This document shows, piece by piece, positions 1,672 to 47,334 of a stretch of DNA of 64,000 bases. Origin of the DNA: Massalongia carnosa (lineage: Eukaryota); the NCBI GenBank assembly GCA_965645245.1, contig OZ287075.1, positions 434,001 through 498,000 on the forward strand, in the 5' to 3' direction. Under the pieces are notes generated by a model. That model worked only from the letters and a program-made list of their open reading frames with translations. It was not told where the DNA came from and made no database searches. The translations under genes were made by a program, and so were the position numbers. The first letter of the stretch is position 1. The number at the start of each line of letters is the position of its first letter.

Positions 1672-1856
1672 GGCCAGCACTCTTTTCCTACCACCTGCCC
1701 ACGAAAAAAGGTTGGAGGTTTTTAATGAGGCTGCGCTAGGAGCTCAGCAATGTGTTGCAGTAACGTCATGCTCGATTCCATCCAGGCCAGTAGCTCTTTT
1801 CCTAGCACCTTCCCTAGAAGGGAGGTGGGAGGTTTTTAATGAGGCTGAGCCAGAGC
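1671..1856 (+). repeat. Imperfect ~70-bp direct repeat in the retrotransposon 3' UTR
   Basis: AGGCCAG..CTCTTTTCCTA.CACCT.CCC...GGAGGTTTTTAATGAGGCTG occurs at about 1671-1740 and again at about 1784-1856. Confidence 0.8.
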
Positions 1857-2242
1857 ATCAAGTTATGTTATCCTAATATCTTCCAAGCTCTTACAAATCC
1901 CAACTCTTGCTAGCCTGCATTCAAGCGGCCATCGGCACGATTAACCGCTTGCAATTACCACGCGATGATGGGCTGAACGCACGAACTACCTGGGATGAAT
2001 TTCGCAGGAGCTCATTACTAGAAGGGAGGTAATTGTAATAGCGCGGCAATACAGGACTGCGCTAGCTCCTGGGATGACTCACCCAAGAAGACCGGGTGAC
2101 TGATAATCCGGATGCTTAGTCATGATAAGGCGGATAGCAATACTAAGCCATCAGCAATCAGCCTTTAGCTTTAGCACCTACCAATCTATTAGCAGTCACA
2201 CTGAGCATTATAACCCATAAGGACTAGTGTCTACTGTCCCTC

Positions 2243-3103
2243 TTATACCTTGCCATCTCGAACGACTTTACCATGTGTTTTATCCCATTTCCAGATAGGT
2301 TTTCGACTTCCTGGATTACGTAGCTTCATTCGTCTCATGCTGGTTTCTAACGCCCAATTCTCTTTAGCTTCTGATTCTAAAGTCTCATTGAGTTTATCTA
2401 ACTCAATTTGAGCCTCTCTTTTCTCTTTTGCGGTCTCTGTTTTCCAGATATGAAAAGGTCCTTTCTTATCGTACGAAAAACAGCCCCAAAACAAAAACTC
2501 GGAGCATCCTTTCCATCTACGTCGAATACACGTTTTAGCATACATTTCTTTCGAGGTATGCCACTGAAGTCTTCTTCCACGTCTAGAACCCAATATAATG
2601 CTTGTTTCTTCAGTCCGTATAACGTTCTTCCAATCATCAATAGTCCAGTGCTGATATCGCAAACAAAATTGCAGACGAGCCTCTTTCATGATCGAATCTA
2701 GACCTGGCTTTTTCGTGCTTTTACAGGGGCGAAACCCATTCTGTTTAAGCGTACGAAGTATAGTAGTGGAGGAGAGTTTATGATCAAAGCCAATCATAGC
2801 TGATGATTTTTCTCTGCTATTTCGATCTTACACTACATTATTCAATATAGCTTGCTCTACCTCCGGTGTAACCTTTTTAGGTCGTCCTGAACGAGGTGCA
2901 TCTTCTATATATTCTACTTCTAAAACACGAGATACAGCTGGATCATATCCACGCTGTCGTGCTTTGATTTTGAGAGCTGAAATCGATCTTGTGGAGACTC
3001 CAGTCACTGGTTGCACCATTTTTGCCGCAATTCCGTGTTCTACAAGCGCTAAAGCCTGTATTCTTTGTGCAATCGTGAGACTATTGCTCTGTGCATTGGG
3101 CAT
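2243..3103 (-). pseudogene. Tc1/mariner-type transposase, inactivated and 3'-truncated
   Basis: N-terminal HTH (RIQALAL...PRSGRPKKVT), then KPGL..MKEARLQFCLRYQHWTIDDWKNVI and FWGCFSYDKKGP. The two ORFs are in one frame, split by TAA at 2828-2830. The first catalytic motif reads RTEETS where WTDETS is expected. Similarity stops at RDGK. Confidence 0.88.
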
Positions 3104-3310
3104 GATAATGATGATGATTGAAACCTTCTACTGAATATCAGATGTAGTATCACTGTCTTTTTGACGACGAGAACAGAAGCAACTCAAGATTTTCTAGACT
3201 ATTTTAGTACTATATTCCCCTTGTAAGCTAATAAACACTAATGCACGTCTCATGTACGCTAGCAAGGACTTTCAGCGTCATCCTTCGTAAAGTTAAACCT
3301 TTTTCGGTAG
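2248..3310 (-). mobile_element. Tc1/mariner DNA transposon, 5' half; possible terminus at 3310 followed by TA
   Basis: Transposase above. The minus strand reads TA|CTACCGAAAAAGGTTTAACTTTACG from 3312, a plausible TA target plus TIR start. The partner TIR is not in the window. Confidence 0.5.
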
Positions 3311-3616
3311 TATAAACTCGCTTAATTGATTTGCGGAGAAAATCCCCTAACATCTTTTGATCAATCATCTTCTTTTCTTCATTTGTTTATTATTTATTTA
3401 TATGCCTACTACTAGAAGACTTGATGAAGGCATGACAGAAGAAGAAGAAGAAGAAGAAGAAGAAGAAATTATCTTTCTATGTATTATGCTCAGTGTTATA
3501 CTGATTATTCTGATTTTAGAGCAGCAGAATCAGCAGTCTCAATTACAAATTCAATATCGATCTCCGGTTTCTATTTCCAACGGTTATTTCGCTCGATGCC
3601 TTGGATGACGAGTATG

Positions 3617-4643
3617 TGTAATGGGCTACGAGACCAGTAAGCTTATCACGAGCGACACTGATCTCGAAAGGGGAAATGCTCAGCGTGAGAGGTGGAAGAT
3701 AGCTACTACGTGCTGGTCTCCGAGAGTATATGTGATCCAAAGAACTAATGGATGTGGAAGTGCTCAGACCAAGAGATCTCGTCCGAGACCCAAACGTAGG
3801 TTGTTCATAGAATAAAGACTAATTGCTAACGAATACTACAGGATTCGTTCTGGTATTTATCCTACTCACCCCAAGCCTATAGCCTTGGGAGCCTTGGAAC
3901 CTTAGGAGCCTTGCAACCCACTTCTGACCTTATCGCCTTACATCTAACCATCCCTCAGGATCCATCTACGAACTCGGCGTTCGCTGGATCATCTAGTCAG
4001 CCTCGAGCAGCCTTCTAGACCTTCCCTTGCAAGGTAGAACACTTCTACCTCCGGCTAGATCCCTCACTACATTGCTAGCCTGCCTCTAAACATAAAGTCT
4101 AGACGCCGAGGCTATGTAGCTTCATTTCGCCGTCACCACTACCAACGTAGCGATGGAAGGTTACCTCCGACTGAATCTCTATCTACACTGCGGACCTGCC
4201 TCTAGACACAAGGTCTAGACCACAAGGTCATGTAGGTTCACTCAGTCGACATCACTACCAACGTAGCAATAAAGGTGGAAGCTGAAGTTTACACCGGGGA
4301 GGCCGAGCTCAAGCTGCGTCCAGCTAGCCGTGCCTCCTGCTACAACTCTTGATCCATCAAGAGATCGAGTAGCTCCGAGTAGGCCAGTAGATTCCATATA
4401 GAGTTCACGGCTTCTCCACAGGAGTTCGCCTTACTCCATGGCAATCTACCACCACGGCCTCGACAGGTGTTTGATCTGTAAGCAGTCTAGAACGTAGTAA
4501 CAACTAATTCGGAGTTGTGTTGCAAGGTGGCGTCGTGTCAACCTCGACGGCTGTGCGACTAAGTACTACGGCCTGGCTCATGCTAGTTAATCCCGCAACC
4601 GCCGTAGGCGATCACGTATCCTTTTAGCGCCATCCGTATTACA
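3617..4643. mobile_element. Solo LTR, 1027 bp, 5-bp TSD GTATG
   Basis: Ends TGTAAT...ATTACA. GTATG lies at 3612-3616 and 4644-4648. Excision restores the Harbinger frame. Confidence 0.93.
4080..4275 (+). repeat. Internal ~80-bp imperfect duplication inside the solo LTR
   Basis: CTGCCTCTA.ACA.AA.GTCTAGAC...ATGTAG.TTCA...CACTACCAACGTAGC.AT..AGG occurs at about 4080-4160 and about 4196-4275. Confidence 0.8.
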
Positions 4644-5675
4644 GTATGTACGTCGCTGGATGCGATTCACAAAAGATGAAATCCGACTTTTGATTGGTTG
4701 TTTGAGAATTAATACCATTAAATGGCGAACTCGTTATCAACCTACCCCAGAGACAGCTTTTTGTCTTTTGCTGACACGACTCTCCTGGCCCGAACGATTG
4801 TTCACGCTTACTCGGATCTTTCACCGAAGTGAGGCCTGGTTATCTTCCGTGTTTAATGATGTTGTCATGCATCTGCAGCATGAATTCGGCGAATTAGTTT
4901 CATGGCATCCTATGTTGAATAATTACACTCGCTTAAAGAGATACGCGAAGGCTATCAATAAATATCTGAACATTGAAGGCGAGGCTTGGCTATGGGGCTT
5001 TGTAGATGGAACCTTTCGAGGTGTCTGCAGACCAAAAGACGAACAACAAATATTTTATTCGGGTTATAAGAAAGAACATGGCATTAAGTTTCAAGGAATC
5101 GTGCTTCCTAATGGTCTGATCGGATCACTAGATGGTCCGTATGAAGGCAGAATATATGATAGAATGATGTGGCAAAATTCTCGGGTAGAAACTTGCATGC
5201 GTCGTGTAAGTGGAGTCTAAATCAATCAAATCTGCAATAAAATCAATCAAGAACCTAGTTTTAGCGCCGTTATTAATTCTATTCTGATTTAATCAGATAT
5301 GCGAAGGCCGAGCACCCCTTTATCTTTATGGTGACCCTGCATACTCTACTACCTTTGGTGTTATTGGTGCATGGAAAGGTGCACCATTAACCACGGAACA
5401 ACGTCAATTCAACAAGGCCATGTCGAAAGCTCGAATCGCCGTCGAACAAGGATTTGGTATAACTCAAAAACACTCGTCTCATAACTGTTGGGCCCTTCAG
5501 ATGAGACTAGGACTTCAACCGGCAGCAGCCTATTATACTGCCGGAGTGCTATTGACGAACTGTTATACTTGCATACGAAGCAATCAAATTAGCGATCAAT
5601 TCGTATGTTCACCGCCATCGCTACATGAATACCTTAGACTTAATCATATAAATCAAGGTACTTGTCGCACTTTCC

Positions 5676-6128
5676 TCAAGAGTCGGTTGTGTTTTGATGA
5701 ACTTGCACCGCAGCAAGTATTCGTGCTAATTGATCTTGCTGTAGAGCACGATCATTTTTAGCCTCCTCGGCCTCCTCTTCCAACTTGACGAGACGTCTGA
5801 CGAGACTATTATTCGACGAATCAGAGGCTTTCGTCTTGGCGCCATCGTTGATCATTGTCGTCATAGCATCAGCTAGTTTGTTGATTGCCGTGGAAGTGGC
5901 GGAGGCCTCCAGTTTCGCTCGTTTAGCCCTAGTTAACTTTGGAGCATTTTCAGAAGTAGCGCGAGAAGATGTCGATGCAGAACGTGATTGACCCCGAAAA
6001 CCTTGAATTCTCGGAAGCATTGAAGTAGCAGAAGGCTCAATTTGAGCGTATTCCGACCCGAAAAGATCATCCTCGTCAATATCGGTGGGGTCGTTACCAT
6101 CATCACTGTTATCTTCTCGCATTTGGTC

Positions 6129-6160
<32 letters not shown>

Positions 6161-7221
6161 GAGATAGTAGCCTGGTCCAATCATCTCGTTTATCTTTAGC
6201 GTTATCATTTTCTAGTCTTTCTTCCTCAACGGTTTTCTTCTGTTTGTCAACGTCACAGTCATAATTCTGACAAACAAGAATCCATTCATCGATAGCGGTT
6301 GTAAATGATGTTGTCTCGTCTTCTTCACCCGATCCCAGCATGGCCCGAAAATGAAGTCTCTTGTTCATGAGGTTTTTCACATTGTGGAAGGATGAACTGG
6401 GTGGTGTGCGTGGTCCACTACTGCTAGGAGTGCAAGAGAACAAAAAAACAAGAGAAGAAAAGAACAATAGAATATAAACAATAGCTAGACTGATCACTGT
6501 ATGCCTCGTGCCTCGTGCCTCGTGCCTCGTGCCTCGTGCCTGTGAACTGTATGTGTTGATGCTATGTGTTGTGTAGCTATGCTACGAGCATGCTTGCTCC
6601 ATGTCTAAAAGGAAAAGAACTATCTATAACTAAAAGAAAGACTGTCACCTGACTTCCCCGCTACCTTTACCGAGTAGCAGCCGAAAAGAACCAATTCCCG
6701 AACCGCTAGCAAGTTGAATTTTGAGCATCACCGCTCCACCCCCCTACAACATGACGTCGATGATTAGTGGAGTCTTTGTGAAACATGTCATTAAACTTCT
6801 TTCCAATATTTGCCCACCACGCACCCATTCTTTTGGGTATGCCGAAAGTTTCCGAATGATTAAGACATAATTGAATGAGATGCAAATCATCTTCCGGAGT
6901 GAGTTTCGGCTTGGATTTCGTTTTTCTTTGTGCTCCGACGAGCGGGGCAGACGACGAAGGTAGGTCAGCCTCTCGAGACTGTAGCAGGGTGTCGGAATTT
7001 CCTGTTAGTATGGACCATGGAGCCGGAGGCAGAGGAGAGCCCCATAGAATCCCTCGATTGGGAGGACATGAGGCCAAATCGGATGGTAGAGGTGTTAAAG
7101 GTTCGGGAGTGGGAGGAACGGGAGTGGTAGAAATATGGCCTGGTCTCGGAGTACATGACCATGAACAGACGTTGTTTCGGTTAATAATTTCTGGTTTTCG
7201 AAAGGAATTATTGAAAGACAT
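5676..7221 (-). pseudogene. Harbinger ORF2 (Myb/SANT-like DNA-binding protein) interrupted by a solo LTR-like insertion
   Basis: Myb-like segment LTPEDDLHLIQLC...WWANIGKKFN. Removing 6379-6748 gives ...DSTNHRRH-VKNLMNKR... and one 391-aa ORF. It is convergent with the transposase and overlaps its 3' end. Confidence 0.82.
6383..6748. mobile_element. Solo LTR-like insertion, 366 bp, 4-bp TSD ACAT
   Basis: Ends TGTGGAAGG...CCCCCTACA. ACAT lies at 6379-6382 and 6749-6752. Excision restores the frame. Contains (TGCCTCG)5 from 6502. Confidence 0.85.
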
Positions 7222-7365
7222 TTTATCGCAGGTGAATAATCGAGAATGTGTTAAACGAAAAGGTCTGAGGTCGATGTGACGTTGAATCTGAATATAGTGC
7301 TAACCAAAAAAGGATGCAGCTAAACCAAATTCAGTTCGAGGTGCATATGAAAGTTTTTATCATGT

Positions 7366-7746
7366 TGTCACGTTCTAGGAGGTCGCTGAGCCTAGCCCAA
7401 AATAGTTTAGTCTACCACACCTTACCAACACTGATTCCTTTGTAGCGTTGTAGCTCTCTTAGCACTGTTAGGTCAATAGCACCGTCAGCTTCACAGCACC
7501 AGCTCCGTTACAGCACCGTCAGTTTTACAGCACCGTCAGTCTCACAGCACCGTCTCTGTCACAGCACCGTCTTTTCCACAGATTCTTAATGTCACAGCAC
7601 CGTCTTCGCCACAGCAACTAAAGTGTATTTCCACGAATTTTTAGGAGATAGTGAGGTCTAGCACTTATCCTCTATCCTGAGCATCATCTCAATGTGTTGT
7701 AGGCTTCATATTAACTTCTGTCACAACTAGACCATGATCGATGACA
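7366..7746. mobile_element. Probable solo or partial LTR without a matching TSD
   Basis: Ends TGTCA...TGACA around a non-coding interior with tandem repeats. The flanks differ (CATGT versus ACCTA). Confidence 0.45.
7477..7617 (+). repeat. Tandem ~17-bp repeat with ACAGCACCGTC core, about 7-8 degenerate copies
   Basis: ACAGCACCGTC followed by about 6 variable nt, read directly. Confidence 0.9.
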
Positions 7747-7770
7747 ACCTACAAGAGAAAGTACAAGAGG

Positions 7771-8373
7771 CTAATAATCGCAATGTCCACAATAACCACA
7801 ATCTTCGAGGCTACAGGTAGTAAAGTCTGTATGAGACTCTACGCTGTCATCTCCACCATAGACATCACTATCGTCGTCATCATCAAAGCCGCATCTGAGT
7901 GAGGGCATCAATAATGGAGTCGGAATTCTCGGATTCGTCGGATTTCGTGCCATCATGTCCTTCTTGATATCGATGGCTATGCTCCCATACGTTTGCACGC
8001 CAATGATGCTTATTGACTGGGTCCTTCTGGTATAGGTTGATCTCGTAGAAGCGTTCATGGACTATGCACTCAAAAATGTTGGAGGCGTTGACTTTCGCAA
8101 AGTTGAGGTTGATGACGTCGGGACTCATTAATGTCCAGAAAGGGGATTGTTCTATCGTCAGCAACGATGGGTGTGAAATAGCCCAAGCGTAAAATATTTC
8201 ATCTTCCTAAAAACTCGAATGACATAAGATGGGTTGGCTGGGCACTCAGAGGTACGCATAGCAGCAATATATCCATCTGTGCTGCTCGTAAGGAAGTCAT
8301 TGAACTTGTCATGATCGATGCGTTGGGCCCTAAAAGGCGTAATAGACAACCAACAAAAGACTTCTTGAGCCAT
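7771..8373 (-). pseudogene. Frameshifted hypothetical protein with acidic stretch and C-terminal CxxxCGYCGHCDY motif
   Basis: Three overlapping frames join into one protein-like sequence (MAQEVFCWL... / EDEIFYAWAISHP...HHWRANV / DDDDSD...CSLEDCGYCGHCDY). At least two frameshifts are needed. Confidence 0.6.
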
Positions 8374-8740
8374 GATGGTAATACCTCACTAGAACAAACA
8401 AGCTTAAACAGTGCGGATAGCAGATACGCGTTAGCTTCCGTGCTCTCTCGGTCTCTATTTTTCTCCCTCCATCTTTGATTGCTCCGCTCTTTTCTGACAT
8501 ACTCTCATAGCTTGTGCTAAGCCAGCAACTGTGTCGCAGATGCTTAGCTTTTACTGCTCGACTACTCTGTGCGACTACTGCTGAAGAGAAGGTAGGAATC
8601 ACAGTGGCTCACGGCTTTGGCATGGAGACAGTCATGATGCTTTGGGAGCTCCGAGGATCGGCTGCCCTGGCAGCGGCTTTCGAAGGGCATGATTGAACTT
8701 GGTGGGAACGAGGTGGGAGATCTAGTAGGATGTGATTCGG

Positions 8741-9322
8741 CTTGGCTTCCTATTCTCTTATGCCTCCCTCATTGCATATGAGAGCGATTTCAAGATTGCG
8801 CAGGAGAAAAGCTTGCTTTCAAAAGACATGAAGTGGACTGCGTGGGTGACCCTAGCAGAGCAGCTCGGCACTGAGGACGGGAACTTCTATTCTCAAATCG
8901 ATGAACGATTCAAGTACGGAGAGCTCCGTTTGCACCGTTTGAACTTGATATATCGTTTCTCGCGGCAGCCACTATTCCTGGGCGGGTATATGTCACACTG
9001 GAACCAGTACGGAAGCTTCTTTCAGGATAACATTGCCTGGTTGACCGCTGCAACCGACTAAATTGTTGTCGTCTTGACGGCCATGCAGGTTGGGTGGAGT
9101 ACAAGTCTGAAAGAGGACACTAGGTTTCAGCATGCTTCATTTGGCTTCATCGTCTTCTCAATTGTGGGGCCCCTCGGTACCATTGGTCTTATTTTCCTAG
9201 CTTTCTTGGTCTTGTTCGTCTGGAACTGGAGAGCGACAGTGACTTACCAAAAGAAGCGTTCTGACCATCTGGAGTTTTGGAAACCAAGTACCAAAATAGT
9301 CGCGCCTGGCATGTCGGCATAA
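8741..9322 (+). pseudogene. 5'-truncated membrane protein pseudogene (YGELRLxRLN family, recalled as DUF6601)
   Basis: Motifs GFLFSYASLI.YESDF.IA, RFKYGELRLHRLN and VVLTAMQVG. In-frame TAA at 9059-9061. N-terminal half is missing. Confidence 0.8.
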
Positions 9323-9849
9323 ATCATCAAACTCAAATAAGTAAAAGACTATTGAGCGGAGCGAAATCACTTTACATTGTCAATTTAACGGGGTTGAGAT
9401 GGCTCTGGGTTACGTATCAGTCTGTGAGGCACGGAGGCACCTCAAAGGGAGTTTTGAGGCAGGGCGGTGCCGGCACGTGAGACTTGCGGGGAATGTACTT
9501 AATTCAAATGGAAATCCGATGTCAACCTGATATGGAGATTAATTAGGTGATTGATTGCTGCAGAGCATCTATGTACTCGCCCCCTCTAATATAGTGGAGG
9601 TGTGGTAAAAATAGCTACGTCGGCGGTTCAGCTAGTCACGTGGGTGGCTTCATGTGTGCTAACGGCCATATAAAACGAACAAATTTGGCGTGCCTCTCTT
9701 GGATATCATTGGGGTAAATGTCCAAGCCAACTCTTTCTTTGTAGCATTCTGTTTCTTGAGCGGCGAGAAATAGGGAGACTATACATGGGCTATAGAGCGG
9801 CTTGAGGTGCGTTTTTGACGTTATCATAGACATTGAGACTAACTTTTGA

Positions 9850-10944
9850 TAGCGCTTATTTACGCATAATGCTAGGCCACAGGTGATCCTGACCGACTGT
9901 GATCAAGCCCTCTTGAACGCCTTAAAACCTTTCTGGCATGATACGCCTAAGATCCTATGCATATGGCACATTAATAAGAACGTGCTTAAGCACTGCAAAC
10001 CGCTTTTCGAGACGAATGAAGAGTGGACGGAGTTTCAGGGCGACTGGCATAAGGTGCTTTATGCAAGGACAGAGCGGAACTATGAAGAGGCGTTCGTACA
10101 ACTTCTCTTGAAATACGACTATGCTCCCTAGACATATGTAACAGGCCCGGCACGAAAACGAGCGGACTCGGCGGTAACGGGGGGTTTTCAGACATTCATC
10201 AACCGATTACGAGCCATGCTCCTCGACTCGCTCTCTGCTTGAATGACATTTGGCTGTCTAAATTCCATGCAAAATTAGCAAGCGCCTGGACAAACTGACA
10301 TCACCACTTTGGGAATACTGCAACATCGAGGTAGGATTCGTGACCAGTCTGTGAAAACTCTTTACTAATACCCAACCAGGGCCGAATGAGCCCATTCAAA
10401 GCTTAAATCTTATATCGGCACGAGCACGGGCGATATTTTGAAGATTTTCGACAATTTGACTAGAGCTCTAGCTAATGAGTATCCGGAAATACTAGCAAAG
10501 CGGGCATCGGAGCGGCAGCGAAGCATCATCAACTTGCCGAGTTGAGAGTTATATGGAGGACTTCTGAGCCGAGTGACACATAAGGCCCTGCGAAAGATCA
10601 ACGATCAGAGGTTCTTGATTGGTGGTTCTGGTTGGGAGGCAGACGGGTGTACGGGTACATGGATCGTATCTATGGGCTTGCCGTGCAGCCATGTACTTAA
10701 GCATCTATTAGACACACATGGCAGCATTCAAATCGTACACATTCATCGATATTGGCAATATGATCGCCACCATGAGCATCAATATTTGGCTAATCCAGAT
10801 AGACCCTTGCTCGCGCCGCTACCCGTCCGGGCTCGAGGGAGGCCCGGAGGCAGCACTAATATTCCGCAGAGCTCGCAGCAAGCAGCAGCTCGCAGCAGCA
10901 CAAGGCGCAATCCGTCAGGCTTTGAGCATGTTCTGGGATCTTAG
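9850..10944 (+). pseudogene. Mutator-like (MULE) transposase fragment
   Basis: Motifs VILTDCDQALLNAL...LCIWHINKNV, SAWTN*HHHFGNTATSR/AE*AHSKLK, SWIM-like C...MGLPCSH and STRRNPSGFE. Several in-frame stops, 5' end missing. Confidence 0.88.
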
Positions 10945-11229
10945 AGAGGGCGGCGATGTGGAATATGTCAGAGACCGGATCATAACCGTCGAACATGTCC
11001 GTCACGTCCATTGGTACCTTGAGTTGTATATAGATTACACCTAACATTATGTATCTATGGTCATGGCAGAATTTTTGTAACAAGAGCCCAGAAATATATA
11101 TGTAAGAGATTGACGGATGTTCTGCACAACCTTAAATCGTACGCGGTTTTAAAGTACAAACCACCATATTATCTGCAGCTGACAGTGCAAATGTAGTCAT
11201 TCTGAGCTATCCTTGAACCCGAATCAGTT

Positions 11230-11940
11230 GTACGCTGAGGAGAAATTAAAACCTCTAGAACGCGCTGTATTCGACCCAGACTGCATGGAATCCGAGGAGC
11301 AGGAATCCAAGGAGCGGGAACAGAATGTCATCGTGGCACCCGCGTTAAACTCCTCCAGATGATTAAGGAATGGACCACCGGTACAGAAGGAGAATGCATA
11401 TTCTGGCTACAGAGCAAGGCTGGCACAGGCAAGTCTACGATTTCTCGGACCAGGACCAGGAAACTCATCACGGAAAGGCACCTTGTCGCCAGCTATTTCT
11501 TCCCAACGATCTTCCAAGGGGAACCAGATGAGCTTGATTGCGTCAACCCAATTGCTGCCCAGCTTGTCCGGCAATTGTCTTCCATAGCCGTGCACGTGCG
11601 AAGCGCGATTAATGACGTGAATGCTAGGTCCTCCGTAGCCAACTGGTCGAGGATAAAGCAGTTCAAGAAGCTGATTCTAGGACCGTTGCGGGAGATTGAC
11701 GACGATTCGAATACTCCGATGACCATTGTCGTTGTGATTGATGCACTCGATGGGTGTAATCAGATTGATAATATCAAGGACATTCTTCACGTCTTACCAA
11801 AAGTGAAGAAAAAATTACGTTCCATCAAAGTAAAATTCCTTGTGCTAAGCAGACCGGAGGACTATATTCGCGATGTGATGAAAGAAAGTCACTTCACGCA
11901 TCATTGGAAGGGAGATCACATAACCGATGACATGCTATAA
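11230..11940 (+). pseudogene. NACHT NTPase (fungal NLR/HET-E-like) fragment
   Basis: CHRGTRVKLL..IKEW, Walker A IFWLQSKAGTGKST, ASYFF, Walker B VVVIDALD and KFLVLSRPE. Truncated, with no repeat domain. Confidence 0.85.
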
Positions 11941-12117
11941 GAGGCCGCCCAGCTCTTCAGTAATAACTACGGCGTCTAGAGCAAAAGAAGCTACAAAATT
12001 TCTCGATTCATTTGCGAGGCAAGGTGAGTGATCAGAAACAGTTTACATAGCATCTACTGAAAAAGTGTAGGTAGCCGGGTGAAGATGAGTAAGGATCGCC
12101 TTCGTGCTCAGTGTCTC

Positions 12118-13306
12118 TCACCCGATGCCGAGTACTCCTATGTCAGTGTTACCGTGGATGGGCATCTTGCTAGAAATGCGTTTGCCTGCCGTTGAAAGTG
12201 CAACGAACAAAATGTCTTTTCTACGTCGAATCGCTGAGTAAGACGCATCTAATTCGCCTTTCGGAGGTTGGAGTCTCGCTTCATCGCCGGGGATTATTCG
12301 TCGAATACTAGCTGGAAGCGTCTCTCCGATATTTGACATGACTGACATATTGGAAATGAAGGAGGTCCGAACAGCGTTTGTATCACATAGGAGCGGGGGA
12401 ATGCAAAACGTTACGATATTGTGAAGAACTTGGAATGGCAGAGCTTTTCCTTTGCTGAGGTACGTGGGAAGATATAAATACTAAGTTTTTCGACGAACTA
12501 AGAGCCTCATTTCGAGAACGTAAGGTGGACGAAACTTTCTGCCTAATGAAGGGTTCAATAAGCACTAGCCAGGGCAAGCGGTTCCAGGGCTGTGATTCCA
12601 AAGACGGGCGAAGGGCAGACGTCCGGCTACTGTCAGGCACGCTTGAGAAATTGACGGCATATATCGGTCATCCGCCAGAACAATAGTTGCGGGCGGACGA
12701 GCTGGCAGCTACACATGCACAAGCTCAGGTTCGCATGCTATATCATATTTCAGGCTCGCATGTACGCCGCAGTGATGCCTTGCGAGCCCTCTTGCTCTTT
12801 AACTAAGGCTCGAAAAGAAAAGGGTTGCACTTTAAATTCAGTAAAGACTAGAAGCAAGAAAAGATAGCAGAACCAAAATGATTCCATGTACCAGAAGACT
12901 CGTTAGAACGATCCTCAGGCCCTATTTCAGGCTCGCCCTCAACCTCAAGCTCTTTTAAGCAGTCATTGAGCTTTTTTGAAGACGTGCCCAAGTGGCCTAA
13001 TACTTCCTTCGCGTCTGGATATTTCTTAAACTCCGACCAGCTCAACTTCGCTAGGAAAGAGGATCGTCGAATGTGTGCGGGTGAATTTGATGGATTCCTT
13101 GTTATTGTTTGGATCCTTAGAACCACCCAGATTGTCTCGTCGGATTCCTCGACTTCAATTGCGCGAATGCGGACTTCAGGCGGCGAATCGGAGGACAATC
13201 CATTACACCCTTTAGAGGACGTGATGGGGGTAGAAATCAAGTCGATACTAGAAGGATTGTTGCCTCCAGTCCAATCCATTTGATTTATCTTTAAGTTGTT
13301 AGCCAC
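12118..13306 (-). CDS. Possible orphan multi-exon gene or remnant, product unknown
   Basis: Three same-strand ORFs (12848-13306, 12383-12640, 12118-12348) with possible GT donors. No family recognised and no full model built. Confidence 0.25.
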
Positions 13307-13932
13307 AAATCACTTTCACAATTAAGGGAAAAGGAGACGGGCAAGAATTCGGCATGCATGAGAACGTGGCCTTGTCTGAAATCCTTACCCCTGGAGGGCG
13401 TTTGTCGAACTGGAGTTATTTTTTCCTGAGTGTCACGATGAAGCAAAGAATGCGGCAGGGTCACCTGCATAGAGAGCAGAAGAGAGCAAGAGATAGAGGC
13501 AAATGGAAGCTGCAAAATCCAGAATGTGCAAGTATAGCGGGCGTGAATAGGCAAACATTAACAGCCTCGCGGAGCCTTGCGTCTGTTATATAATGATTAC
13601 AAGCACGAGCTCGAGCACCATCCAAGAAACTGAGATATTTCTAATCTCCGCTTATCGCATTATGAGTCGGCTTCGATAAGGTCCGTTGTGCCTTCCGAAC
13701 CCAGCTAATCTAGTGCTGTTTACAGCTCAGATATCTGCCAAACAGTCAAACTAATGTCTACATCAGCTAGGTCAATTCCCTTTTCGACTTGACATTTCGA
13801 AAAGTGTAAGTTGGCGGTTGAGGATTATCGACGCCTTCAGCCACGCCGATGCAGGAAGTTAGAAAGCCGCTAGAACACTATCCGCTGGGATGCCGTCCTT
13901 AGCGAGTTCACGCAAATCTTAGGCTAGGTGAT

Positions 13933-14046
13933 AGTACTCTGTACACAGTACTCTGTACATAGTACTCTGTACACTGTACACTGTACTCTGCACTCTGCAC
14001 TCTGCACTCTGTACACATCCAACTGGTGAAGCTGTACTCTGTACTC
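13933..14046 (+). repeat. Degenerate tandem array of GTACTCTGTAC/CACTCTG units
   Basis: AGTACTCTGTAC three times, then CACTCTG repeats, read directly. Confidence 0.9.
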
Positions 14047-14856
14047 GTAATCGGTACTCGCTCCTGTCGCTATCCATGCGGGAACTCAAATCATGGCAAC
14101 TCAAGTCCTTGAAACCTCGACAATCAATGTGGAATTATTATACTGATTGATAGACCAATCTTCTCTTTCCGTTGCTCAGCCAAGGGGATTTTTGCTCCTC
14201 CAAAATGCATTCGTTTGCTTGGGAGAAAAGCCAAATCTAATTTGCGTATATGCAGGAGATTTTGACTTCTACGGCCAATATAGAAATTCTATCTAGCATC
14301 TATGTAACGGATGTACGAGTGAATAATCCAAAAACTAGGCGACTGCGCAAAACAACCTGCAGTTCCGTACTGCATTCAGTTGCAAGACTGGTCTATCTAT
14401 TCGGCCGATCTGTGTCTTTCTTTGTTCTTTTGTCCCGCCATGGACTCTGGGATGTAAAGCTCGCTATGCAGATCTGTGAGACTATATGGACAACGAAACA
14501 TATAGTCGGTTGCAGGTAATCTTTGAGAGAAGAACAAGAGAAAACTAAACACGATGACAGCAAAGCCTCTTCAGCTTTCCGGATTTGGTTAATTTGGTTC
14601 TGCCTCTACACCTTGTACCGGTGACTTTGCCAGTTGCGGGCACCAGCTTTATCCGAGACAATGGGTACAGATAACGCGTTCCCTTCATGTCCTTCCCTGC
14701 TTCTGCTGCATCAACACGCAAACTTACACTTGCCGTTACCCGTCCTCCTCGCTGTTATTTTCGCTTATTTGAAGTAGCAAAGCAGTCGAGCTGGCTGGCG
14801 AGTTTTAAAGAACATTTCCACATCAGTTAATTTATCTCTCTTATTGCTCTTTCATC

Positions 14857-37703: not shown

Positions 37704-40700
37704 TTACTCCCGCACAACGGTGTTCTTCTCCTCTCCTTGCGCCTCGCCATCAAGATACGCTACCAGTCTCTCCTCGGCATCAGTGTCTGGGTTTACCGTG
37801 ATAGCCTTCTCACCCGTCTGGATTATTGCGTCCACCATGGTTTGGTCATGAAGATCAGGTGATGTTGAAGCAGGCGGAGTGAATTCTTTACTACTGCTGG
37901 AATCTTGTGACATCGTTTCCTTGGACGCTGGAAAATCTTCCTCCGTTTCCACAGCGGCAACAGCTTCCGGTGACTTCACAGATGAAGGGTTATGTATCGA
38001 TATAATGTCATTGAAATCTTTTGCTACTGAATCTTTCGTCAGCTCAATCGATGCTGATGCTGAAACCCGAGTAGCCAACGACGGCGTATCTCTTGTTTGC
38101 TCTTCTGGAGACGTGGTGCTTGCGTGTACAACATCGAGCGAACCATCATCATTCGTTTTCCATACAATCCATGGCTGTTGAATTGTCCAGGTCCGTTGCG
38201 CTATTGCTCCCTCCAAAGTTGGATCTTTCGCAACAGCAGCCGTGGATGCTGGAGCAGCATGTTTGCGACGTGCAGGTCCCTTTGCACGGCCCTTACGCGC
38301 ATCTCCCAGTCGCGCTTTCTCCTCTACTATTTCCGGTTCTGCCGATAGCTTCTCTGAAGGCTTAGGAGCTTGTGGCCCAAGTTGAAGCCGTTTATCCAGG
38401 TCTGACAAGAAACCTGCTTTAAGAGATGCGATTTTGCCACCGACTGGCCGGACAGGTAACAGGGGTTTAGGCTTTGGAGCGGGCGGAGAAGTGATACCAC
38501 GTTTATCATCAGGAGCATCTCCACTTGCGATTAAACCGGCTGATGAAGTCTTTGAGAACGGCGTAAAGTCAGAGTTTTCCTGAGCAATAGCTCTGGAGGG
38601 ACGGGCTGGAACTTGAGGTTTTGGTCTATCAGGAACTACCGGAGCTTTTCGGGGTTCTGATGGAGATGCTGGTTTTGATTCGACTGGTGAGAGCTCCGCA
38701 GCGGATTTGGACAACGTGGATAAATTTTCGGCGGTAGGAACTTGGTGCATGCGTTTTGCAGGTCGCGCAGGGACATTAGGAGAGGATTGTACGCTTGGGC
38801 CTGAAGAGTCCACAGCGAGCTTAGATTTAGCAGGTCTTGGTGGAATACTTGGTTTTTCAACAGTAGCTGCGCCAGATGTTGCTCCATCACGAGCTTGCTC
38901 TTCGTTCATCGTACCCTCATCGGGTCCTCCAGATGTGAAGACTCCCGCCCCAGCCTGCACGCCTTGATCTTTAGGATTCTTCCCTGAATGACTCTTGATT
39001 TCGTCATCTTCATAGTCGCCAATGGTTGTCTCGAGTTGAGCATGATCTGGTGAATCCTCCCAGATATCTCGGCTAGGAAACCTCTGCTTCATACTCATTC
39101 TCTGGGACTCGTCAAGCAGATGGGGCTTGAAATGTGAGGTGGCCAAGCGCTCCTCTTTTGGCAATAGTTTTGCCTTCTCATCTTCATCGACCTCCCTTTT
39201 TCGTGCCGCTTCGGTCTCAGGTGATTCAAAGACTGCAGAGGTCTCCTTCGTTATGGTCGCAGCTTGCTCTTCGGTTGATTCTGGAATTTCCACCGTGGCT
39301 TGAAGTTGTAAGCTATTGGGCGTATCTTCCCAGATGTCTTGACTTGGGAACCTCCTCTTGATATTTTCGCGTCGCTTAAACTTGTCAATTGCAGCGACAG
39401 GATGGGCATCTTTATCTTCTTCGGGGAAAAGCGGTTCGTACTCGTCAACATTTTCGAGAGGTGTATGCAAATCTTCCCGCTCATCGTGGGAGATGAATTT
39501 CATGAGACCTGGAAGTGAGCCATGGACGCTTACAGGCCGACTGGATGGTCTGCTATTTGTCGCGCTGCCAGAGCGACTGCTATTTCGGTACCCACTCTGA
39601 TACGATGGAAGCACATCCGAATCAACGCCCGTATAGTAATTGCTTCCTCTTCTCTCCTGCACGGGAGATACCGCTGGCTGCAGATGCTCGATTCCTGGCT
39701 CTTTCGCCACCTCATCCGAAGCAAGAATAGGCACACCATAGCCGGTCTCGTCAATCCAGCCCCCAGCAGAACTAGTGTTCCCTCCATGCGGTCCTAGATC
39801 TTCTGTAGGAGGATCGTAGCCATTCCCGGCATATTTACTCTTTCGGATAGCAGGCGCTTTTACAAGCACCTCATCATCCTCCGTTTCGCTTTCTAGAGCG
39901 GATTCCGACTGAGTGTGTGTCAGCCCATGAGGTTCTTTCGCTTTCTCAAAGGCGTCTTTTCCATCGACATCAACAGGAAAGCTAGCTTTGCGCAATGGAG
40001 ACTCGACATGGGTTTGCGAGTGATTTGAATGCGCCTTTCCCGGATAGGTAACAGATGACGGTGTGTTGATGCGACAGGTGTACTCTTCAGATGCCATGTA
40101 ACCGATTTGCTCGTTGGGTAATCCAGCATGTATTGGTGATGTTCCTATCAGTTATTTGTAAGCCACACGTGTACATCATCCTCGTTCACGCTCGATATAC
40201 CGATGCCCGAGCCCTTACTCGCAGTATCTCGGACTATCTTGTTCAAATCCTCACTGCTAAGAGCCCATTCTCCTCGACCGCCAACACCCGATCCATATTG
40301 TCCATGTTCTTCCCGAACCAATGCATCCGGATGTTTCTCGTACCATGCTTTCCCGAAAGGATCGGTATGCGGAACTCCATGTCCATGCATTCCATAGCTC
40401 CCAGGTGGCCCTCGAAAAACTTCGCGGCCACTACGTGTACGACCATGATGTCTCCCATGTTTCGGTGTTCCATCACTGTGTAAGCCAGCGCCAGGAGAAA
40501 AGGTTGGAGAAAACGGCGATGGCGATGGTGCCTGCACATCCCCTGCATCCGGATGCATTGGCACCCTCTGGCCAATTTCGGGAATTCCATGATCACTGTC
40601 GTTCGCTTGCGCTGAGACTGGAAGTTCGGTCGAAGCCGAGGACTCTGTTCTCGAAAAGCTCACTTTGGAGCGCAGGGTGGGGTTTTGCAAGTTTTTGTCA

Positions 40701-41242
40701 TCGTTCACCACAGGGGTTCCAGCTTTGCCAATGCCAGCCGCAGCTGCTTGAGTAGAGTCGGTGCGGGTCACGGTTGAGACTCTGGCTTTGGCTGTGGAGC
40801 TTGAAAACGATGGTCTGGGAGCATGCAGGGGTAGATCACTACCGACATTACGTGTTTGCGTGGGCTCATTCGGAGATGGATTCGATTCTGTGGCTACCTC
40901 TTGTGGTTTCTCGTACTCAATATCCGCATATTCGTTCCCCTCCTGTCCAATCGAAGGCAGTGACACGCTGGGCGGACGTTGCGGTGCGCCGAGATTCAAA
41001 TCTGATGCATCCTGGTCCCCGTAGCTATGTAACGAACTAGTTTTGTTGCCAAGATTCATAGCCAGAGGTATCTCATTCAAAGGCGACCTCGGAAAGTTAT
41101 CTCGAGTAGGGGATTGCGAGCGTGCAGGTATCCGTTGTGCAGGTCTTGGAGGGATTCTTGGAATGTCAGGGGGCCCGGCAGGAGCAAGTTGCTGATGATG
41201 TACTCTGGCTGGTCGCGGAGGAATTTGAGGAGTCGACATCAT
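37704..41242 (-). CDS. AIM21: AIM21-like proline-rich actin-capping regulator (2 exons)
   Basis: EDLNKIV, PILASDEV, two RFPSxDIWED motifs, KIASLKAGFLSDLDKRL and a CPI-like LGDARKGRAKGPARRK. Confidence 0.8.
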
Positions 41243-42640
41243 GAAGATACTGACTAATGATTCCGGCTATTTTCTGGGAACGAATAGCCACCTGCTCATT
41301 GTGTTAGTCAATCAGACGGCGTTTGGAAGGCATTCCAAGCTGTTGAAGTGTGTCAACATTATCAACGCTGTCATGATCAAGTGATTCTCAGCTTTTGGAT
41401 ATGTCGGGAAAAGGGTGATCAATGTAATCAATTTCAGTGAACAGCAGCTAATCCTCTGATTTAATATGATACATCTGGTGCAAAATCACCTTTGTCTGTT
41501 TGCAACCGCTTGATTGACTGAGAAAAGACAAGAATGTAACACGAACACGGCAAGCAGGCAATCTGACTTACAGGATCTAGAACGACAAGTAGTTGAGGAT
41601 AGGTACACTGTAGTGAGGACGAGATCAACAAGAGAAGTCACACCAGTAGTAGAAGTAGCTATACATTCGGACATTAGGCGCCTCTGTTGGCACCGAGGGA
41701 ACCAATCCCTTTTAAAGGTGAATCTGGGTTTGCAGAAGAACATGAGTGGCAGCGGGACCATCACGTGTTAAAGATCATCCTGCGCTAGTCCTACTTTGGC
41801 CAGCATTTAAACGATCTTAGTGGGACGTGCTAGGATGTCCCGCTGCCTTGGCTGCCACGCTGTCACAGCTTGGCAAGTGAGCAATTTCTTCATCAAAATT
41901 ATTTGCCATGAAACACCAAATCCATATGGAGGACTACCTTAGCTGTACTCTGTATCCGTGTACCAGTCATGTTCTGATGATATATGAAACGATTATCTGT
42001 CCGGAACCAATCCGTCTAACAGCACGATCCGCCCTGACAGCGGCCATCGAAAGAAGCGGGAGAGAGGGGAAGGATCAGCATTGCGTGAACAGAATCCCAT
42101 GATACACTTCCCCTCACGCATGGAAGGAATGAAAGGTGGGAGGGCGTGGTCGATTGGTTCCGGGTTTCGGTTGATTAATGGATAGCTCTGCATATGTAAC
42201 CTTTTCAAATGAGGAAGGGTTAAAGATACTCGTACGTGTCGAACAATTGCCTCTACCAATTCTCGACGCTGATTTTGGTTCAATCAATTTCCTCCCTATT
42301 ATGATTAGACATTTTTCTTTTTCGCCTGGTCCTATCTCCGATTCCTTGTCTTCATTTAAAATACATATGACAGTCGATGTTACATTTGACTATGAGTCCT
42401 GTCGTTGGTGCATATATACGTAGACTGGATTGTCATTCTATAAAGGGCCTCTGGCTTCGGACCCGTTCACGATTAAAATGCTGCACATGAAGAATAGAAC
42501 AAATTGGCTCGATGAAGATATCAAAACAACGCATGGAAAATAATAATCGGTCCTGGCGATTCCCCACGTTCCTGTCCCTCATAAAGCCTCGCCATCCTCC
42601 CTCCTCAAGCTCGACCACTCCCACGCCTTGGATTAACAAC

Positions 42641-44437: not shown

Positions 44438-45240
44438 TCACACAATCATCTGTGCAACACCTTGTCCCCCAAGCGTCTTGCTACCCACAAACCCCTGTCC
44501 CTTTAAGCCAGCAATAGCATAGCATACTGCCGCTAACAGCAACACAACGGCCGCGGCGATCAGACTCGTGGCATCTTTAATGATACTAAGCCATTGGATC
44601 AAGCTCATAGTTCCGTAAATGGCGGCACGCATGTAGTTTGTCGTGAATCGCCGTATGAAATTGTCGAATGTGCTTGATGTTGGGCAGATGCGGAGGAGGA
44701 GGGGGATTTCGACGAAAATTAGGATAAGTCCCGAAAGTCTATAAAGGAAAAGTCTATAAGCAAATACAATCAACTATGATAATATCTTTAAAGAACTTAC
44801 AGGCATAGGGCACCAAATAGTATGAGGATTGAGAGGTGGAGCAAGTGTACGATCCCAAGAGCTATGCACAGCAATATGCACAACACACCCAACCTGCAAA
44901 AGAAGGACATCAGTAGTAATCCAGATGCAGTGTGAATCCTACGGTGGGTTTTGCCACATTTTCCTCTGCGTCCGTTTAGAGTTCGTATTTGGAAAACTCG
45001 TAGGCTCAAGATGATTTGAATTCCCCCATTACAACTTTCTGGTTGCCCTAAATGTAGTGGCGTAGCTAATAGATTTCACAGATCATGTGGTCATAGCCAC
45101 TCGAAGATAGGTAGGAAGCTCAATTCACTAACCATTGCCCATAAATACCTGAAAAAGCAAGCTGTCAGCAAACTGTCCCCCCAAGCTCACTTACTATACT
45201 AACTGAAGTTGCGCGACCGGAGCTCTTCAGCTAAAGTCAT
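44438..45240 (-). CDS. TVP18: Golgi membrane protein TVP18
   Basis: Spliced MTLAEELRSRNFSIYGQW...LIFVEIPLLLRICPTS..FD.FI...NYMRAAIY...TLGGQGVAQMIV. Three introns. Confidence 0.93.
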
Positions 45241-45559
45241 TGTGCTTTCTCCCAGCAAGTGAGTCTTCGGAGGCAGTAATCCAGTCCTCTTTGACCAGGT
45301 CGCAGAGACTGGCGTCACTCCTGAGCTGCTCAAACTATCAATGGGAAGTTGGAGGGCGTAAAGTATGCTGAGTGCTCTAGTTTTCTAGGCTATATGCATA
45401 ATCTAAAGGCCGAGAGGAGTGATGGTGATTCGCGAAAAAACAGGATAACAATCGAGCGGGTTCAATGATGCCTGATTCCTTTGTCGTGGCTTCTTGCGAA
45501 CGTTGACAAAGTTACGAAGCTGGCTAGTGTGGTGTGGGTATAGTAAAGACTCACAATAC

Positions 45560-45822
45560 CACGCGGCTGACAAAAAAACCGGGACACCAAAACCTGCTTC
45601 ACGGAACAAATCAAGCAAACTTTTCAAAAAAACATATTTTCTTGAAAATCATTCAGCAACAAAAACAACCTGAACAACCTTGAAGTCTTCTCAGATGACA
45701 GAACACACATCAATCTTAAATTCCTGAAATTATTAAGTGTAGGAAAAAATAATTGCATGATATTGTTCTACGCGTAAGAGTGCTCAAGTTTTTGGTGTCC
45801 CGGTTTTTTTGTCAGCCGCGTG
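45560..45822. mobile_element. MITE, 263 bp, perfect 33-bp TIRs, CAC...GTG ends, 5-bp TSD AATAC
   Basis: CACGCGGCTGACAAAAAAACCGGGACACCAAAA at 45560-45592 has its exact reverse complement at 45790-45822. AATAC lies at 45555-45559 and 45823-45827. The interior is AT-rich and non-coding. Confidence 0.95.
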
Positions 45823-46531
45823 AATACATAGCTCATATTTTGATAAATAATACTTCGTCCTTTTCCGCACTTCGCACTTATCCCATACTCTGAACTCTCA
45901 AGCTGAGTAGTACCACTCAAAAAGAACCCATTGTGAATTCAGCGATATACACGTGGAGGCAAGCATCATTGTACTCCTAATTTACCATGGCTCCAGCTTT
46001 AAGCCACGTCATGTAAGCACGTTTCAATATCGTGTTACTTGCTATATGCTGCAGACCAAGGCAGAAACAATCAGTATTAAATAGTACAGATTGCTGCCTA
46101 CAACTCTTAGAATTCTGCTCCCTTGGTTTTCCTATTCTAATAATTTCAAGATTACGTCTCTACTTATGCCCGCTGCACACCTAGGACACGAAATATTGCT
46201 CAGTACGGATGCTTCTTTGTCCAAAAGGCGCTTAGCGGTAGTTGCTTTTATTCGGGATACATAGGTCATGTTTGAGAACACCAGTCAAGAAAAGGGGAAA
46301 GAGTAGACTTGTAGCATCTAAAGCACTGAAAAAACTACTGGATTTTTGGTTGTTTAGGCTATAAGTGCTGCTGCATCACTTTCGATTTCTTCCACCTACT
46401 GCATGCACAAGCCACTTTAAACTGATTTAAAATTCTAAACATTGCAGATCATGGAGGACTGTGCAGGCTCTCTTTAAGACCCTTCAACCAAAGTGTGTCG
46501 TGTCAAGAGATTGGAAGTACAGAGTAACTTG

Positions 46532-47334
46532 CTACTGCTCATAAACTAGTTTAAAAACATCGTTGAAAAGAAAATAGCTGCCAGCACCGTCTGGAAGCAG
46601 TTGGAACACTTGGGTATAGTTCATCGGCCGCTGCTCCTCATCAACCTAGCATCACAATCACTATTAGCCGATTCATCCGCAAGTCCGCCAGAGCCAAAGC
46701 ATCCAAACCAAGAAGTCATAAGAGAGTTGGAAATATGAATTCTCAGCATACCAACAAGGCTCCAGTCACCAGAACAAGAATCCCACCAGTTTCATTAGAA
46801 GGTTGGGCGTCGAGGGTGGCAACCCGATGAGCAACTTTAGTAAATGGAAGTAACTGGAACGTCACATCAGCCTTATCAAGTATCATTCCAAAAACAGACG
46901 AACCGTAAGTTTCTCGATAATACTGGATACTCCTTGTACAGCATGCGTCTCGAAAGTCAGCATTGAGTTATCTCGCTTTTGCGCCAAGTCTGAGATCAGT
47001 ACTGTAAAGCTATCTCTGGACCTTTGCAAACGTACGTATAAGGCTGCTAGATTACGCCGATTTTCATCAAATGTTTTGTAGTAGAACTGGGTGAACTGTT
47101 CTATAGGGTGATCAGCTTTCCTCTACGGCTCATATGACTTGATCAGACGAGTCTCGCGATAGCACCAGGGAGAATAGGTCGGCGACGTACGTGCAATGTC
47201 TGCAAAGTCTAGAATACGTCGTCAGTATATTTATTTTGCTGCCTATCCTTCTCGACGTCATAGTGGGGATGTGAGGTGAGGGCTAAACTTGGCGTTCCTA
47301 GTAGATGCTAAGAACCATCGTGCTTACCTCCCAT
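46532..47334 (-). CDS. NTF2: Nuclear transport factor 2 (intron-rich, absent from the ORF track)
   Basis: Spliced MGDFADIAQQFTQFYYKTFDENR.NLAALY RDNSMLTFE...LPFTKVAHRVATLDAQPS...VLVTGALL VDEEQRPMNYTQVFQL...FNDVFKLVY. Confidence 0.95.

Follow-up and report, generated by a model that had tools for sequence, protein, structure and literature searches.

Fungal MITEs are mostly derivatives of Tc1/pogo elements, which make TA duplications, or of PIF (3 bp, TWA), hAT (8 bp) or MULE (~9 bp) transposons. The ascomycete MITEs mimp of Fusarium and Guest of Neurospora are of the Tc1/pogo type and make TA duplications; they are a few hundred bp long and non-coding, carry ~30-bp terminal inverted repeats (TIRs), are present in multiple copies and often lie in promoters. 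The element described here resembles mimp and Guest in these respects, but its duplications are 5 bp long and variable in sequence. With its CAC...GTG ends and 5-bp duplication, the family lies outside the usual fungal MITE classes.

As described in PMC1131882, the signature of Transib consists of a 5-bp target-site duplication (TSD) and termini in which CACAATG is followed by a 23-bp spacer and AAAAAAATC. The passages of that paper on the termini name positions 5 and 6 of the nonamer as a conserved A in all Transib TIRs, and the targets are described there as GC-rich. In insects and sea urchin, the TransibN families (Kapitonov & Jurka 2005, PMC1131882) are small non-coding copies found in many places, with a 5-bp TSD, CAC/GTG ends and a TIR of ~33-38 bp. 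In fungi, the same paper reports a Transib transposase in one species, soybean rust. The passages of PMC5751038 that deal with Transib report it absent from 1,730 fungal genomes in a Pfam-based survey and name it as the one cut-and-paste superfamily that fungi are said to lack; for Ascomycota, transposase-based surveys likewise report no Transib.

Transib is one of the lineages of the CACTA/Mirage/Chapaev/Transib (CMCT) clade, which are described in PMC12730594 as ending in CA..TG and duplicating 2-5 bp of the target, 5 bp being the Transib value within the clade. As far as they are characterized in that text, the described fungal CMCT lineages make 2-bp, 3-bp or TA duplications and belong to Basidiomycota. 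In transposon catalogues of lichen-forming fungi, many TIR elements and many MITEs are without a classification (e.g. PMC8773270); the relevant part of this paper gives 18 'TIR' and 4 'MITE' families for Umbilicaria pustulata without a superfamily.

We analysed a 64-kb stretch of DNA, hereafter the window, whose reading frames indicate a filamentous ascomycete with intron-split genes, and the host fungus is probably lichen-associated. The element is 263 bp long (45560-45822 of the window) and has a 240-bp relative in a separate metagenome contig, L008. Its parts are as follows.

45555..45559, no strand: left copy of the target-site duplication, AATAC, identical to 45823-45827 and directly adjoining the TIR
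45560..45592, plus strand: left TIR, 33 nt perfect (to 45595 at 97%), starting with CACGCGG
45593..45789, no strand: AT-rich non-coding core of 197 bp, with a GC content of ~0.33 in 45600-45799
45790..45822, minus strand: right TIR, 33 nt, with CCGCGTG at its end
45823..45827, no strand: right copy of the target-site duplication, AATAC

Read from the window letters, the layout is ...CTCAC AATAC, CACGCGGCTGACAAAAAAACCGGGACACCAAAA ... TTTTGGTGTCCCGGTTTTTTTGTCAGCCGCGTG, AATAC ATAGC, in which CACGCGGCTGACAAAAAAACCGGGACACCAAAA forms the first 33 bases of the element, and the end of the element is their perfect reverse complement. The inverted repeat arms extend over 36 nt (45560-45595 and 45787-45822) at 97% complementarity, with the outer 33 nt being perfect. 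A 29-nt arm of the TIR occurs twice in the window, once per strand, and had no match in 100 shuffles. Among the four inverted pairs of at least 20 nt that are separated by no more than 6 kb in the 64 kb, that of the element is the sole one with more than 85% complementarity. The AATAC repeat stops at 5 bp, as the preceding base is C at the left copy and the final G of the element at the right copy, and an exact adjacent 5-mer would be found by chance in ~1 of 1024 cases. The core has a GC content of 0.33 compared to 0.48 for the window, and ACGCGT is present in it as a motif at 45772-45777. No ATG-started ORF that overlaps the element is longer than 44 aa, and the best match in an Rfam search of the element was sub-threshold (19.6 bits versus a gathering score of 65.3). 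Folded as single-stranded DNA, the element gives a long hairpin of -58.6 kcal/mol in which the 33 terminal bases are paired (z = -8.88), and none of 200 shuffles was equally stable. An initial annotation of this DNA had described perfect 33-bp TIRs of the form CAC...GTG, an exact AATAC TSD and an element without coding capacity, and each of these details was found in place when checked against the letters.

The locus is present in five public runs from three studies, namely a lichen metagenome, three runs of one organism and one of another. For the analysis of the family, contigs of four runs (X1, X2, X4 and X5, from three studies) were placed on positions 45100-46300 at a likeness of at least 85%. 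In all four runs, the depth rises inside the element only, 3- to 38-fold, and the core bins stand 3- to 29-fold over the flanks. From the flank to the TIR bin, the depth goes from 26 to 990 in X1, from 433 to 14833 in X2, from 879 to 32008 in X4, and from 4.4-5.2 to 54 in X5; these are values summed over contigs, which are not copy numbers, and we read them as 'tens' of copies in the genome at most. The element is spanned by none of the listed contigs, and the flank contigs end 18-30 nt into a TIR, as contigs do at a collapsed repeat. Many copies are therefore located elsewhere in the same genome, and the view that there is one copy only, which had been taken from the window, holds for these 64 kb and fails for the genome, where the depth rise and the many different flanks in four runs speak against it.

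The contigs that leave the window sequence define the boundaries of the element. Its termini hold 15 of the 23 loose-end entries listed (29 in all), each with a different flank. At the left end, seven of the listed entries (9 contigs) were found, six at 45558-45560 and a seventh listed at 45570, the letters of which contain the TIR start behind a different flank; at the right end, eight listed entries (12 contigs) lie at 45822-45827. Since different flanks abut 45560 and 45822, the similarity between the copies ends exactly at CAC and GTG. Pieces at least 95% alike make up 47/47 in X2, 113/117 in X4, 22/24 in X1 and 14/14 in X5, which indicates that the MITE family is young. The other family members differ from the window copy at 45601, 45636, 45675 and 45708 in all four runs. 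Five loose-end entries among those listed (behind 45592, and before 45789/45790) share the outer 33 nt and then continue into a different interior, and these contigs are either a second subfamily or a longer partner. For the relatives whose sequence diverges after position 33, a long TIR (>60 nt) was rejected as unproven, as one contig fits either arm.

With its short non-coding sequence, TIRs, flanking duplication and many copies that have different flanks and common boundaries, the element is a non-autonomous TIR element (MITE) from a mobile family. The single copy in the 64-kb window would also suit a palindrome in the TVP18 promoter that is not a transposon, having arisen by chance or serving a function, such as a hairpin or inverted repeat involved in regulation. 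Such a palindrome is next to inconceivable given the 5-bp duplication at the flanks, the arms found in 0 of 100 shuffles and the relative at an unrelated locus, and we count the multiple copies with different flanks in four runs as already refuting it.

The relative was found in a metagenome scan. While a scan with 23 specified TIR bases gave 0 loci, the outer 17-mer of the TIR matched at least 119 loci; 118 of the 119 matches listed were classified by a script as single matches without an inverted partner, and among those listed only L008 holds a real element. Many of the lone matches have a GC-rich motif in common, which runs on as ...CTGGCCACCGA and is presumably a bacterial coding motif. 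Scans with the TIR consensus gave 0 loci in the genome-contig collection and 0 in the viral-contig collection. L008 comprises 8,017 bp of a 159,828-bp metagenome contig, with a GC content of 0.45. As it carries an MFS/TRI12-type transporter gene that is split by introns over several frames, L008 is eukaryotic and probably fungal. The element occupies 3778-4017 (240 bp), and its 33-nt TIRs are complementary to each other at 85%. The outer 20 nt of the better-preserved arm are the same as in the window TIR, which this arm matches at 29 of 36 positions overall. Compared with it, the other arm (the left TIR) shows four C-to-T/G-to-A transitions and one transversion. The interiors of the two elements do not align.

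The L008 element is flanked by ...GGTCTGT and TCTGCTT..., giving a 5-bp repeat TCTGT/TCTGC that matches at 4/5 positions with a C/T transition as the mismatch; at least four matches in five are expected by chance with a probability of ~0.016. The duplication is thus 5/5 in the window copy and 4/5 in L008, the only two elements with both flanks visible, and the 5-bp TSD given in the initial annotation recurs in an independent related element. Among the loose ends listed, the base after GTG is A in 9/12 contigs and the base five positions before CAC is A in 4/5 single-contig entries. These unpaired flank bases weakly agree with a 5-bp duplication in which targets beginning with A are preferred. 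The signal is weak because the left flank is generally A-rich, position -6 being also A in 4/6 of the entries listed. One pair of loose ends in X5, with ACTGG on the left and a two-contig consensus A+CTGC on the right, is suggestive and too uncertain to be counted.

The same flank letters could be partitioned in another way, as a CACTA/EnSpm-like element of 45559-45823 that is one base longer at each end and has a 3-bp duplication (ATA in the window, CTG in L008). Both are exact 3-mers within the 5-mers, C stands before CAC in 6/9 contigs and A after GTG in 9/12 (among those listed), and CAC..GTG ends with 3-bp TSDs are what PMC12730594 describes for fungal EnSpm. The extra bases, however, are not mutually inverted (C/A in the window, T/T in L008) and are not the same in the two elements, and CACTA elements have CAC as their outermost bases. 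In addition, positions 1 and 5 of the 5-mers agree in 3/4 cases (A=A, C=C, T=T, T versus C), which a 3-bp duplication does not predict and which has a chance of ~0.05. On account of the extra bases, which show neither inversion nor conservation, and of the agreement at the outer 5-mer positions, we disfavour the 3-bp partition and consider it very unlikely.

With the 5-bp duplication, the question is which transposase made these ends. The initial annotation had proposed Transib/RAG-type ends with RSS-like TIRs. Like any superfamily, Transib is defined by its transposase, a DDE enzyme homologous to the RAG1 core with C2C/H3-4H motifs. For a non-autonomous member of Transib proper, with a RAG1-core-like transposase and RSS-like TIRs, speak the 5-bp duplication in two elements, the CAC...GTG termini and a TIR of 33-36 nt, which is near the 38-bp Transib consensus. 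The TransibN families of PMC1131882 are alike in these features and in having small non-coding copies in many places, but they differ from our element at heptamer bases 4-6 (CACAATG there, CACGCGG here), in the A-rich nonamer after the spacer and in the GC-rich targets. After CAC, the heptamer CACGCGG shares only the last G with the RSS heptamer CACAGTG. At the 12-bp spacing, the nonamer position is occupied by CCGGGACAC (TIR positions 20-28) and at the 23-bp spacing by AAACCTGCT (31-39), each matching ACAAAAACC at 3/9 positions. Where Transib TIRs have the conserved A at positions 5 and 6 (PMC1131882), the window TIR has G and A at the 12-bp spacing and C and T at the 23-bp spacing. An A-run of the TIR sits 3 bp after the heptamer. 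The likeness to an RSS consequently reduces to CAC plus an A-tract, and we treat it as chance; this part of the earlier proposal is not upheld. The G+C of the two targets is 1/5 for AATAC and 3/5 for TCTGC, which, from two sites, does not fit the GC-rich targets described in PMC1131882.

In summary, the Transib-like features found are the 5-bp duplication in both elements and the CAC...GTG termini, while the RSS-like layout and the GC-rich targets were not found. In addition, Transib would be a candidate by end structure; no transposase was seen here, there is no RAG1-core-like transposase known for the host, and the survey of 1,730 fungal genomes in PMC5751038 gave no Transib. Membership in Transib proper is unlikely on this evidence.

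Other superfamilies can also make 5-bp duplications. A hAT family would be one of them, and TIRs of 33 bp are long for hAT. The existence of hAT families with 5-bp duplications (the hAT5 group) is noted in PMC12730594, citing Repbase Reports 2007, and hAT is listed as a core fungal superfamily in PMC5751038. The hAT5 group thus shares the duplication length with our family. It differs in the shorter TIR and in the third terminal nucleotide, which according to the legend of Figure S7 in PMC1131882 is always G in 22 hAT families, whereas it is C in the window and in L008, and PMC12730594 places hAT5 in an animal hAT lineage. A MITE of the hAT5 group is accordingly an improbable explanation. The second candidate is a MITE of Ginger2/TDD, which has an integrase-like DDE transposase. 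Its TSDs are given as 4 or 5 bp for Ginger2 (PMC10045372) and as 5 bp for TDD-4/5 (PMC2836005), and Ginger is named among the core fungal DNA transposons (PMC5751038). The description in PMC2836005 has Ginger termini of TGTNR and Ginger2 TIRs of 50-180 bp, compared to CACGC and 33 bp here, which leaves the duplication length as the one fitting feature. The rve-integrase ORF at 1-1668 of the window has a chromodomain, belongs to an LTR retrotransposon and does not share the TIR. We regard Ginger2/TDD as a highly improbable source.

Tc1/mariner/pogo was rejected because the sequence next to the ends, in the window as in L008, is not TA. PIF/Harbinger and MULE were also rejected: the duplication is 5 bp, the flanking 8- and 9-mers mismatch, and the DDE_Tnp_4 fragment at 4591-5758 lies without the TIR.

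Judged by the end signature, namely CA..TG, a 5-bp duplication and C as the third base, hAT, Ginger2, Tc1, PIF and MULE appear to fit less well than the CMCT clade, to which the signature points most. The CAC...GTG termini and the 5-bp duplication, seen in the window and in L008, agree with the CMCT description, and the duplication falls inside the 2-5 bp range given for the clade (PMC12730594). Like the fungal CMCT members EnSpm/CACTA, Plavaka and ESTA (Kojima 2025, PMC12730594), the family has CA..TG termini (CAC..GTG in fungal EnSpm) and a fungal host, while the fungal lineages described in that text differ in their 2-bp, 3-bp or TA duplications and in their Basidiomycota hosts. CMCT membership is defined by the transposase, and the assignment to the clade from the ends is tentative, with somewhat less than an even chance of being correct. 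Transib proper and the 3-bp CACTA-type partition are both included in this estimate, and what is left after the CMCT clade, hAT5 and Ginger2 falls to an unknown family.

The explanation that we favour, and hold to be very probable, is broader: a non-coding class II element that is not self-mobile, has CAC...GTG ends and a 5-bp duplication, comes from a multi-copy family and would be served by a transposase in trans. A DDE-type transposase encoded elsewhere would bind the 33-bp ends and excise the element. Insertion would proceed through target cuts staggered by 5 bp, the repair of which would give rise to the AATAC duplication. Superfamily and mechanism are read from the end structure, as neither a transposase nor a long copy nor an excision footprint came to light.

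The site of the window copy was found occupied in junction contigs of all four runs, at the left junction in X1, at both junctions in X2 and X4, and at the right junction in X5. The X1 flanks differ from the window by 4 substitutions and 1 indel in 490 bp and by 6 substitutions in 407 bp, while the flanks of X2-X4 are identical to the window and may come from its own sample. A direct joint of 45559 to 45823, as expected for an empty site, was absent from the contigs listed for X1, X2, X4 and X5, and such contigs show presence, not absence, so that a polymorphic site is not contradicted by them. As the site is occupied in all four runs, the insertion is shared rather than demonstrably recent, and we infer that it is old enough to be common to all four genomes sampled. 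Perfect 33-nt arms are expected anyway at ~1% divergence. The window copy had been called recently mobile, and this is not borne out, given that it is in place in all four runs, one of which has a flank difference of ~1%.

The element lies between two genes of the minus strand, and the left part of the window contains remains of other transposons. These features are as follows.

44438..45240, minus strand: TVP18-family gene, with the ATG at 45240, an intron after the first 13 codons and the main exon at 44438-44773
46743..47122, minus strand: NTF2-like gene, with matches to Pfam NTF2 in two exon frames (E = 2.4e-5 and 0.004)
1-1668: gypsy-type rve integrase with a chromodomain, LTR retrotransposon (profile match)
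2246-2827: Tc3-type HTH (profile match)
4591-5758: PIF-type DDE_Tnp_4 fragment (profile match)

The main exon of the first gene matches Pfam PF10233 (Cg6151-P) with E = 6e-32, which we take to be the TVP18 family. The element is located ~320 bp upstream of the ATG of this gene, at the distance stated in the initial annotation, and downstream of the NTF2-like gene, on its 3' side. A MITE copy 320 bp upstream of TVP18 adds ACGCG-containing motifs to the TVP18 promoter, and this may possibly affect expression. The left 7 kb of the window contain transposon debris according to the profile matches. We considered the transposase fragments therein (1-1668, 2246-2827 and 4591-5758) as partners of the MITE and rejected them, as there is no TIR-like sequence nearby.

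In a full-text literature search, the first 12 bases of the TIR had no match, and searches on the topics of lichen, MITE and Transib returned no description of the family; the TE libraries in supplements of lichen genome papers could still hold it. The terms MITE, Transib, CMC, CACTA and hAT are all absent from PMC13535494. The MITE family is real and, as far as the main texts of the literature go, previously undescribed.

The family provides a moderate lead to a transposase lineage in Ascomycota that has CAC ends and makes 5-bp duplications. That this lineage would be a new one, of the CMCT clade with duplications of Transib length, in filamentous Ascomycota including a lichen-associated fungus and at least one other fungus, is unlikely. 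The 33-bp end sequence can be used directly to retrieve the autonomous partner from any assembly of the host. If the partner is Transib-like, it would fill the fungal gap reported in the Transib passages of PMC5751038; if it is of another kind, 'CAC plus 5 bp' would not be diagnostic of Transib. Should a new CMCT lineage of this kind exist, the cutting geometry of the RAG/Transib type would extend to a major fungal lineage, with a young, high-copy MITE as its natural substrate.

In the contigs of all four public sequencing runs that were compared with window 45100-46300, loose ends, where a contig departs from the window, occur at window 45592/45790. In some of these contigs the match to the element, the 263-bp non-coding MITE at window 45560-45822, is confined to the outermost 33 nt of its TIR and gives way to a different interior, which appears in several variants distinguished mainly by G/A changes. 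The contigs with this alternative interior represent either a second subfamily or a longer, possibly autonomous and RIP-affected, partner of the element. In run X2, at a loose end at window 45827, the right flank of another family copy also starts with AATAC, as the flanks of the element do, before departing from the window. This shared start could be a coincidence or may hint at a target preference, e.g. for A-A/N-T/A-N-S.

A related MITE was found in L008, a locus on a 160-kb metagenome contig that is probably fungal:

L008:3778-4017, related MITE, 240 bp

One TIR of this MITE is intact and the other carries one transversion and four C-to-T/G-to-A transitions, two of them in a CpG context and one in a CpA context. 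This pattern resembles what methyl-C deamination or RIP-like decay leaves behind.

At least 119 metagenome loci were listed as matching the outer 17-mer of the TIR. Many of the chance matches share a longer GC-rich motif continuing ...AAAAAACTGGCCACCGAGGC, presumably a conserved bacterial coding motif, which accounts for their abundance.

Elsewhere in the window, positions 1-7300 are rich in transposons and are followed by a tandem repeat:

1-1668, gypsy-type integrase with SH3 and chromodomain, extending past the window start
2246-2827, minus strand, Tc3-type HTH fragment
4591-5758, PIF/Harbinger DDE_Tnp_4, divided between two frames
7461-7614, 17-bp tandem repeat

The window also holds an AIM21-family gene:

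37707-41266, minus strand, AIM21-family gene, two adjacent ORFs

The two ORFs match positions 1-291 and 285-622 of the Pfam Aim21 profile, which suggests that an intron or a frameshift separates them.

The element itself carries ACGCG-type motifs, which resemble fungal MluI-cell-cycle-box sites:

45560-45566 and 45816-45822, CACGCGG at both element ends
45772-45777, perfect ACGCGT inside the element

Through the insertion of the element, the TVP18 promoter would have gained these putative MluI-cell-cycle-box-like motifs.
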